Shown here piece after piece: positions 2,286 through 2,998 of a stretch of DNA of 7,469 nucleotides; the stretch's first letter is position 1, and the number at the start of each line of letters is the position of its first letter. The notes below the pieces were generated by a model. It was given only the letters and a program-made list of their open reading frames with translations, searched no databases and was not told the origin of the DNA. The stretch lies in the IMG/VR virus record IMGVR_UViG_2534681934_000021, positions 1-7,469 of that record; one strand, 5' to 3'. Origin of the DNA: a virus. Lineage: Duplodnaviria > Heunggongvirae > Uroviricota > Caudoviricetes. The translations under genes and the position numbers were made by a program.

Positions 2286-2998
2286 TCACCCAAACGTCTC
2301 TTCAGGCCACTGACTAGCGATAACTTTCCCCACAACGGAACAACTCTCATTGCATGGGATCATTGGGTATTGTGGGTTTAGTGGCTGTAGAAACACCTGA
2401 CCGCTATCCCTGATCAGTTTCTTGAAGGTAAACTCATCACCACCAAGTCTGGCTATACAGAAATCGCCTGGCTCAACAGCCTGCTCAGGGTCAACCAGAA
2501 TTAACATCCCGTCAGGAAAGCTGGGCTTGGATCCTGTTGGTGCGGTCATGGAATTACCTTCAACCTCAAGCCAGAATGCAGAGCCACTGGCTTTTTTGGT
2601 TGTGCTTACCCATTTCTCCGCATCGCCTTTGGTAAAGGTTCTAAGCTCAGGCGAGAACATCCCGGCCTGAACATGAGAAAAAACAGGGTACTCATACTCA
2701 CTTCTAAGTGACGGCTGCATACTAACCGCTTCATACATCTCGTAGATTTCTCTGGCGATTGAAGGGCTAAATTCTTCAACGCTAACGTTGAGAATTTTTG
2801 CAAGCAATGCGGCGTTATAAGCATTTAATGCATTGATGCCATTAAATAAAGCACCAACGCCTGACTGCCCCATCCCCATCTTGTCTGCGACAGATTCCTG
2901 GGATAAGCCAAGTTCATTTTTCTTTTTTCATAAATAGCTTTAAGGCGACGTGCGTCCTCAAGCTGCTCTTGTGTTAATGGTTTCTTTTTTGCGCTCAT
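2286..2998 (-). pseudogene. cI: Lambda-type CI repressor, disrupted by a -1 frameshift in an A-run (A7 to A6) near codon 26
   Basis: From ATG at 2998 the translation [25 protein letters not shown] matches the lambda CI N-terminus, and the frame is then lost at the T-run 2923-2928. The 197-aa ORF 2286-2879 matches the remainder of CI, including the S24 peptidase-like C-terminal domain ([27 protein letters not shown]...). Start to stop is 713 nt, not a multiple of 3. Confidence 0.85.

Follow-up and report, generated by a model that had tools for sequence, protein, structure and literature searches.

A frameshifted lambda-type repressor gene in an Sp1/CP-933H-type prophage of an O157:H7 draft genome: a probable homopolymer undercall

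An Sp1/CP-933H-type prophage with a lambda-type immunity region

The window analysed here (the whole stretch of viral DNA, 7,469 nucleotides) carries a 5'-truncated int gene, an N remnant, pL with its OL operators, a gene for an NYN-domain protein, cI, the OR operators, cro, cII, a frameshifted O, fragments of P and a tail-fibre/assembly module that forms part of a Pin-invertible segment (Table 1). Its sequence agrees at 7469/7469 positions with the terminal part of contig AIFO01000011.1, which belongs to GCA_000249455.2, an O157:H7 draft from the DEC collection released in 2012; we take the isolate behind this assembly to be DEC4E, judging from the accession order. The right end of the window lies two bases from the end of the contig, inside an IS629/IS1203 element. 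At the other end, the position at which the window starts is, in strain 155, 15 bases away from tRNA-Thr; tRNA-Thr, proA and proB are directly outside the window, with both proA and proB present in the flank of the contig.

Table 1. Genes, operators and other features of the window (strand "." where none is assigned)
Feature	Position	Strand	Remarks
Tyrosine integrase gene, truncated	1..975	-	RefSeq relatives annotated as incomplete, N-terminus missing
N remnant, first ~21 codons	919..979	-	fused to the 5'-truncated integrase gene
pL with OL1 (1209-1225), OL2 (1233-1249) and OL3 (1253-1269)	1207..1269	-	by comparison with lambda
NYN-domain gene, 291 aa, intact	1283..2158	-	at the position of lambda rexAB
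cI of the Sp1/CP-933H-type cryptic prophage	2286..2998	-	713 nt as read; 714 nt in references
ORF of 197 aa (CI residues 41-237, in a different frame)	2286..2879	-	complete Peptidase_S24
N-terminal ORF of 57 aa (25 CI residues, then out-of-frame sequence)	2825..2998	-	no Pfam domain
A6 run (T6 on the + strand), frameshift site	2923..2928	-	A7 in lambda, ev099 and strain 155
OR3 (3009-3025), OR2 (3032-3048) and OR1 (3056-3072), with pRM and pR	3009..3072	.	by comparison with lambda
cro	3099..3302	+	67 aa ending NKKQQHK; reference 66 aa ending NKKTTA
cII, 97 aa, intact	3417..3710	+	
Replication gene O	3743..4664	+	already annotated as frameshifted in the finished O157 genomes inspected
IS629/IS1203, left end	6838..7469	+	contig and window stop within the element

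The tRNA-Thr site beside proA, the truncated int, the N remnant and the frameshifted O are those of a known cryptic lambdoid prophage, and the element is Sp1 of O157:H7 Sakai, or CP-933H of EDL933. The fusion of the N and int remnants, the P fragments, the tail-fibre/Pin segment and the IS629 activity are likewise shared. A preliminary description, made from the letters of the window, had already proposed a domesticated cryptic element in which N, O, P and the lysis functions are absent or broken. This is borne out: N is cut at about 21 codons, O is frameshifted, P is fragmentary, and neither lysis genes nor head/morphogenesis genes are found in the element. A crippled state also agrees with the published survey of Sakai prophages, in which Sp1 is scored "+" for repressor and anti-repressor, defective for integrase and replication, and without excisionase or any of the remaining functions (Asadulghani 2009, PMC2669165, Tables 1 and 2), and in which Sakai Sp1 showed no circularization, replication or packaging (PMC2669165). 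An intact repressor is the documented state of Sp1. As sequenced, the window lacks this pairing of intact repressor and anti-repressor, as cI is frameshifted and the 3' end of cro is shifted; contractions of homopolymer runs, which finished copies do not show, account for both.

We found no finished genome collinear with the whole window, the best coverage being 95%. In the finished copies of the Sakai/EDL933 type, cI is intact and the NYN gene is truncated by a deletion (1404-1810), and in those of the strain-155 type the NYN gene is truncated by an IS plus a deletion. The window differs from the Sakai/EDL933-type copies in its intact NYN gene and three contracted homopolymers, in the IS inserted at 6838 and in two SNPs of the pL/OL2 region.

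Several rearrangements were observed in and around the element. Complete phages (ev099) and some O157 strains have about 156 nt that are missing from the window at a junction at 1389-1392, where 3 nt overlap. In many O157 genomes an IS629/IS1203 lies exactly at this junction, in either orientation; it is absent in the window, and the structure seen there could be explained by excision of an IS and a deletion beside it. Segment 5300-6838, which holds the tail-fibre C-terminus and two tail-fibre assembly genes, is inverted in two other assemblies (L007 and L008) with a 24-bp overlap at 5300-5323, and is the Pin-invertible segment. The IS629/IS1203 inserted at 6838 forms a junction common to nine finished genomes. 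Outside the window, at 10332-12700 of contig AIFO01000011.1, phoE is interrupted by an IS3-family element, leaving fragments of 212 aa and 98 aa on either side of the transposase genes; the other O157 loci inspected have an unbroken phoE.

The immunity region is 97.5% identical to that of lambda at the DNA level and follows the same cI-OR-cro order (NC_001416.1, cI at 37227-37940), with OR1-3, OL1-3, divergent pRM and pR, and cro adjacent. Compared with lambda, the NYN gene replaces rexAB, and N and everything to the left of N have been deleted. OR1 and OR3 are identical to those of lambda, whereas the central base of OR2 (3040) and one base of the pR spacer (3053, just downstream of the pR -35) are changed. 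At 3040, the base is G in the O157 Sp1 copies compared and A in lambda; ev099 and one Logan contig (L018) keep the lambda base. Both the OR2 and the spacer changes are common to O157 copies with an intact cI. On the left side, OL1 differs from lambda by one change in its central region and OL2 also by one change. Two real SNPs distinguish the window here: one at 1207 turns the pL -10, GATACT, into GATACC and so removes its conserved last T, and the other, 31 bp away at 1238, converts OL2 from TATCTCTGGCGGTGTTG to ...GCGATGTTG. This SNP haplotype occurs in ten finished O157 genomes, nine of which share the IS junction of the window. The two that were inspected, 644-PT8 and 180-PT54, both lack the immunity region, and the SNPs together with the loss of cI in both genomes hint that control of pL is looser or otherwise changed in this sublineage.

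Among complete phages, Escherichia phage ev099 (NC_049953.1; CI YP_009909947.1) has the same NYN-cI-cro-cII-O order and is 98.8% identical to the window over 1389-4724. Unlike the window, it retains N, P and the nin region, and has the lambda bases at both the OR2 centre and the pR spacer.

The split repressor gene

Read from the ATG at 2998 on the minus strand, the first 25 residues of the cI product are those of lambda CI, except for Ala in place of Thr2; the product then diverges at residue 26 (K to R) and stops after 57 aa. The preliminary description had placed a loss of frame after about 26 residues, at a run of six T where lambda has seven, and alignment to lambda, phage ev099 and O157 strain 155 confirms this: in the run GAAAAAAAG the window has one A fewer, six against seven. 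The reference sequence at the site reads GAA AAA AAG AAA AAT. The distance of 713 nt from start to stop and the 197 remaining codons in another frame, both given in the same description, are reproduced by the predicted ORFs, and relative to the lambda reference the gene is one A short in the run and otherwise of the 714-nt type. cI is thus 713 nt long and split into ORFs of 57 and 197 aa because its A7 run is short of one A.

The longer ORF keeps the Ala111-Gly112 cleavage site and the Ser149/Lys192 dyad of a Peptidase_S24 repressor, as in lambda (PF00717, E = 6.6e-29). Its helix-turn-helix is partial and below threshold (19.8 bits against a cut-off of 23), and a profile search of both ORFs as sequenced found no single ORF combining a helix-turn-helix with the C-terminal domain. 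Restoring one A yields a single ORF with both HTH_3 (43.8 bits) and S24 (99.9 bits).

With this A restored, the gene has no nucleotide difference from cI of strain 155 (WP_001274756.1) or of phage ev099. The Sp1/CP-933H cI is identical to that of the window except for the one base. The frame-corrected CI differs from lambda CI at 4/237 residues, namely T2A, K70N, R128K and D138G (mature numbering); the first of these had been singled out in the preliminary description as one of a few differences. At the nucleotide level, there are 15 further, synonymous differences from lambda. Fifteen synonymous against four amino-acid changes is the pattern of a gene with a history of purifying selection.

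Homopolymer runs in drafts and finished genomes

A comparison with strain 155 over 5 kb gives a single substitution and three indels, and each indel is a one-base contraction of an A/T run in the window. These are A7 to A6 in cI (2923-2928), A7 to A6 at the 3' end of cro (3282-3287), and A6 to A5 in O (4223-4227), the last in addition to the O frameshift found in finished copies. The altered, 67-aa Cro is a consequence of the second contraction. Two other 7-runs in the prophage part of the window are called correctly.

Related assemblies behave in the same way. Against a clean copy, draft AIFH has no substitutions and four indels in 13.5 kb, draft AIFE no substitutions and three indels in 9.0 kb, and the Logan contig SRR490947 no substitutions and two indels in 3.4 kb; draft AIFG has three such contractions, counted outside a divergent stretch at the O iterons. 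All indels in these four assemblies are contractions of A/T runs of 6-7, with different subsets of runs affected in each. When run counts are pooled over the window, three sister drafts and one Logan short-read contig, contraction affects 12/30 A/T 7-runs, 3/69 A/T 6-runs, 0/403 A/T runs of 4-5 and 0/130 G/C runs, giving 15 contractions and no expansions. The same count in finished relatives of the window gives 0/176 and 0/97. The differences are therefore confined to homopolymers, biased towards A/T, more frequent in longer runs, exclusively contractions, and scattered inconsistently among closely related assemblies, all of which are features of homopolymer undercalling. We believe the DEC drafts to be assemblies of 454 plus Illumina data.

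The distribution of the contractions can be set beside the structure of the prophages that carry them. The 6-run cI is present in drafts of two Sp1 structural lineages, the Sakai/EDL933 type (with the 1404-1810 deletion) and the NYN-intact type of the window. The cro contraction occurs in both lineages, including a sister draft of the other lineage (L012), but is not shared within one of them. The distribution of contractions across drafts conflicts with the phylogeny of the structural lineages. A clade carrying a real 6-A allele was considered and rejected: finished genomes of the same structural type are all one base longer, and the 6-run spans two structural types.

Artificial frameshifts biased towards A/T homopolymers, and more numerous in longer runs, have been described for 454 assemblies (Luo et al. 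2012, PMC3277595). The contractions found here share the A/T bias, the length dependence and the artificial frameshifts of such undercalls. The core flank of the DEC drafts (proA, proB and phoE; 3.5-4 kb) contains no indels, and its one T7 run is correctly called. With no more than three runs of length 6 or above in this flank, however, the result neither supports nor refutes an error.

To see how the allele is distributed in finished genomes, we used an 80-bp segment centred on the run as the query against RefSeq complete E. coli records, 612 of which contain the segment. The 6-run cI allele occurs in 1/612, the chromosome of AR-0428. The remaining 611/612 fall in the identity band of a single-position difference, with one extra base in every match listed. 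With a 1.5-kb query carrying the 6-A run, about 268 finished genomes (Sakai, EDL933, Xuzhou21 and ATCC 35150 among them) have the Sp1 structure with one base more. The other two contractions of the window are similarly rare, the 6-run in cro occurring in 3/537 finished records and the 5-run in O in 5/1672.

The single exception is itself in error. On the AR-0428 chromosome, the locus falls in the initial ~17 kb of the record, and in the gene calls cI is frameshifted and both crl and frsA are split. From the same assembly (GCF_008727175.1), NZ_CP044147.1, labelled "plasmid pAR-0428-2", is a 46.9-kb linear sequence that duplicates frsA-crl-phoE-proBA-tRNA-Thr-Sp1 and beyond; in this copy cI, crl and frsA are all intact. 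As this redundant contig of the same locus has all three genes intact, the 6-run allele of AR-0428 is, by comparison of the two copies, an error near the record start of a "complete" genome. The supposed plasmid is redundant chromosomal sequence with a better consensus than the chromosome record.

The closest finished relatives of the window, 644-PT8 and 180-PT54, have neither allele, since the whole immunity region (NYN-cI-cro-cII-O) is deleted at the locus in both. In 644-PT8, the inverted tail-fibre segment directly adjoins an IS at position 1391; in 180-PT54 the IS abuts hyxA, and the remainder of Sp1 has been lost together with its neighbours. The suggestion in the preliminary description that loss of the repressor is tolerated in this element is upheld by these two deletions.

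Records of the truncated 197-aa product come from about 36 index blocks, unrelated prophages included, and some of these cases could be real. One Logan contig of an unrelated prophage with this product (L014) has three 7-to-6 contractions in 3 kb, which look like error. Two long-read assemblies with a truncated cI product have other kinds of differences: an NCTC assembly shows expansions, unlike the DEC drafts, and RLKF03 shows mixed indels together with substitutions at CCWGG motifs. In the latter (GCA_003742765.3; RLKF03000005.1), many substitutions of the CCTGG-to-CCCGG type accompany mixed homopolymer indels that break proA and proB, and cI is truncated by the loss of a G at CCAGGAA, ~30 nt downstream of the A7 run, and not at A7 itself. 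The CCTGG-to-CCCGG pattern is presumably the signature of an unpolished nanopore consensus at Dcm sites.

Undercall, decay or recoding

Taken at face value, the window describes a strain without an intact repressor, which is how the preliminary description read it. The comparative evidence instead favours an assembly or sequencing error, and the repressor of Sakai Sp1 is published as "+" (PMC2669165). We consider it very probable, from these sequence comparisons, that the missing A in the cI A7 run is a homopolymer undercall of the draft assembly and not a biological loss. The frameshift is judged most likely an artefact because the gene is otherwise perfect, because the allele is nearly absent in finished genomes, and because the indels form a contraction-only pattern. 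The element, its repressor and this type of error are all already known.

The main competing explanation is a genuine slipped-strand deletion of one base, which would make Sp1 cI a pseudogene, with no CI produced and pR (and what remains of pL) checked by Cro only. A7 runs do slip in nature and are established hot spots of frameshifting and slippage, the immunity region is evidently dispensable given its loss in 644-PT8 and 180-PT54, the real pL -10 and OL2 SNPs of the sublineage fit a relaxed constraint on the repression circuit, and the core flank of the same contig is free of indels. It would also be harmless, since the element has no N, no working O or P, no kil and no lysis genes. A true deletion would nevertheless have to coexist with two further contractions in the same 5 kb of the same draft and others in sister drafts, all restricted to A/T runs of 6-7, with no accompanying substitutions although 40% of A/T 7-runs are contracted. 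Such a mutation spectrum is implausible even for a mismatch-repair mutator. Moreover, no credible 6-run allele exists among the 612 finished records, and the distribution of the allele among drafts is at odds with the structural lineages. A genuine deletion is therefore unlikely, and we keep a small place for it because A7 runs slip, the gene is dispensable and the core flank is clean. It is similarly unlikely that DEC4E, and perhaps other O157:H7 strains as well, truly carries the 6-A allele, in which case Sp1 would be a cI-null remnant with pR under Cro only, or under a trickle of wild-type CI produced by a -1 slip. If the frameshift is real, it would take further the decay of a cryptic prophage, parts of which have already been deleted in related lineages.

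Two variants of this idea would have the run serve a function. In one, the 6-A allele is real but leaky: tRNA-Lys slipping by -1 on the A-run while the ribosome pauses at a rare AGA, or RNA polymerase adding an A, would restore the frame and with it a little CI of wild-type sequence. Slipping by -1 after GAA AAA would indeed give a protein identical to intact CI, the next zero-frame codon in the shifted allele is the rare AGA, and codons 24-26 of the intact gene (GAA AAA AAG) include, in frame, a dnaX-type heptamer, A AAA AAG. This is a resemblance only, for unlike a dnaX-type site the cI site shows no stimulatory structure, no conservation of two frames and no sign of being used. Folding gave a z-score of 0.18 relative to shuffled sequences, the shifted arrangement is found in 1/612 records, that one being an error, and the zero frame of the 6-A allele contains no canonical X XXY YYZ heptamer; for want of a stable structure and of a conserved two-frame arrangement, a programmed -1 frameshift site was rejected. 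A leaky allele further requires the 6-A allele to be real, which is itself unlikely, and we regard it as highly improbable. Even less credible is a phase-variable contingency locus that toggles immunity in the population. Here the homopolymer does lie in coding sequence near the start, and both lengths are mechanically reachable. On the other hand, finished genomes practically never have the off length, with one of 612 matching the 6-run, so the candidate was dropped; a 7-base run is also short for a contingency locus, and other runs in the same drafts, lying in pseudogenes such as int and O, are contracted likewise.

An undercall is thus the reading that we carry forward, and with it comes a caution: a homopolymer frameshift in an early draft should not be equated with pseudogenisation unless it has been compared with finished genomes or checked in the reads. 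The same artefact changes the C-terminus of Cro and the frame of O in this draft; in sister drafts it disrupts cI, int and further runs.

The strain's true gene most likely has seven A and would encode the 237-aa CI of other O157:H7 genomes. By analogy with lambda, this protein would bind OR1-3 and OL1-3, repress pR and pL and activate its own pRM. The transcripts under its control would be much reduced in content, with pR reading cro, cII, the O and P remnants and the tail-fibre genes, and pL reading only the N and int remnants. During the SOS response, CI would be cleaved at Ala111-Gly112 in a RecA-stimulated manner, derepressing both promoters; this would be without consequence, as N and the replication, kil and lysis functions are gone. 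What the repressor would still provide is immunity to superinfecting phages of the lambda immunity type. Given that it is nucleotide-identical in the O157:H7 copies compared and in ev099, and annotated as intact in the finished genomes surveyed, O157:H7 probably carries a working lambda-type immunity from its Sp1 remnant.
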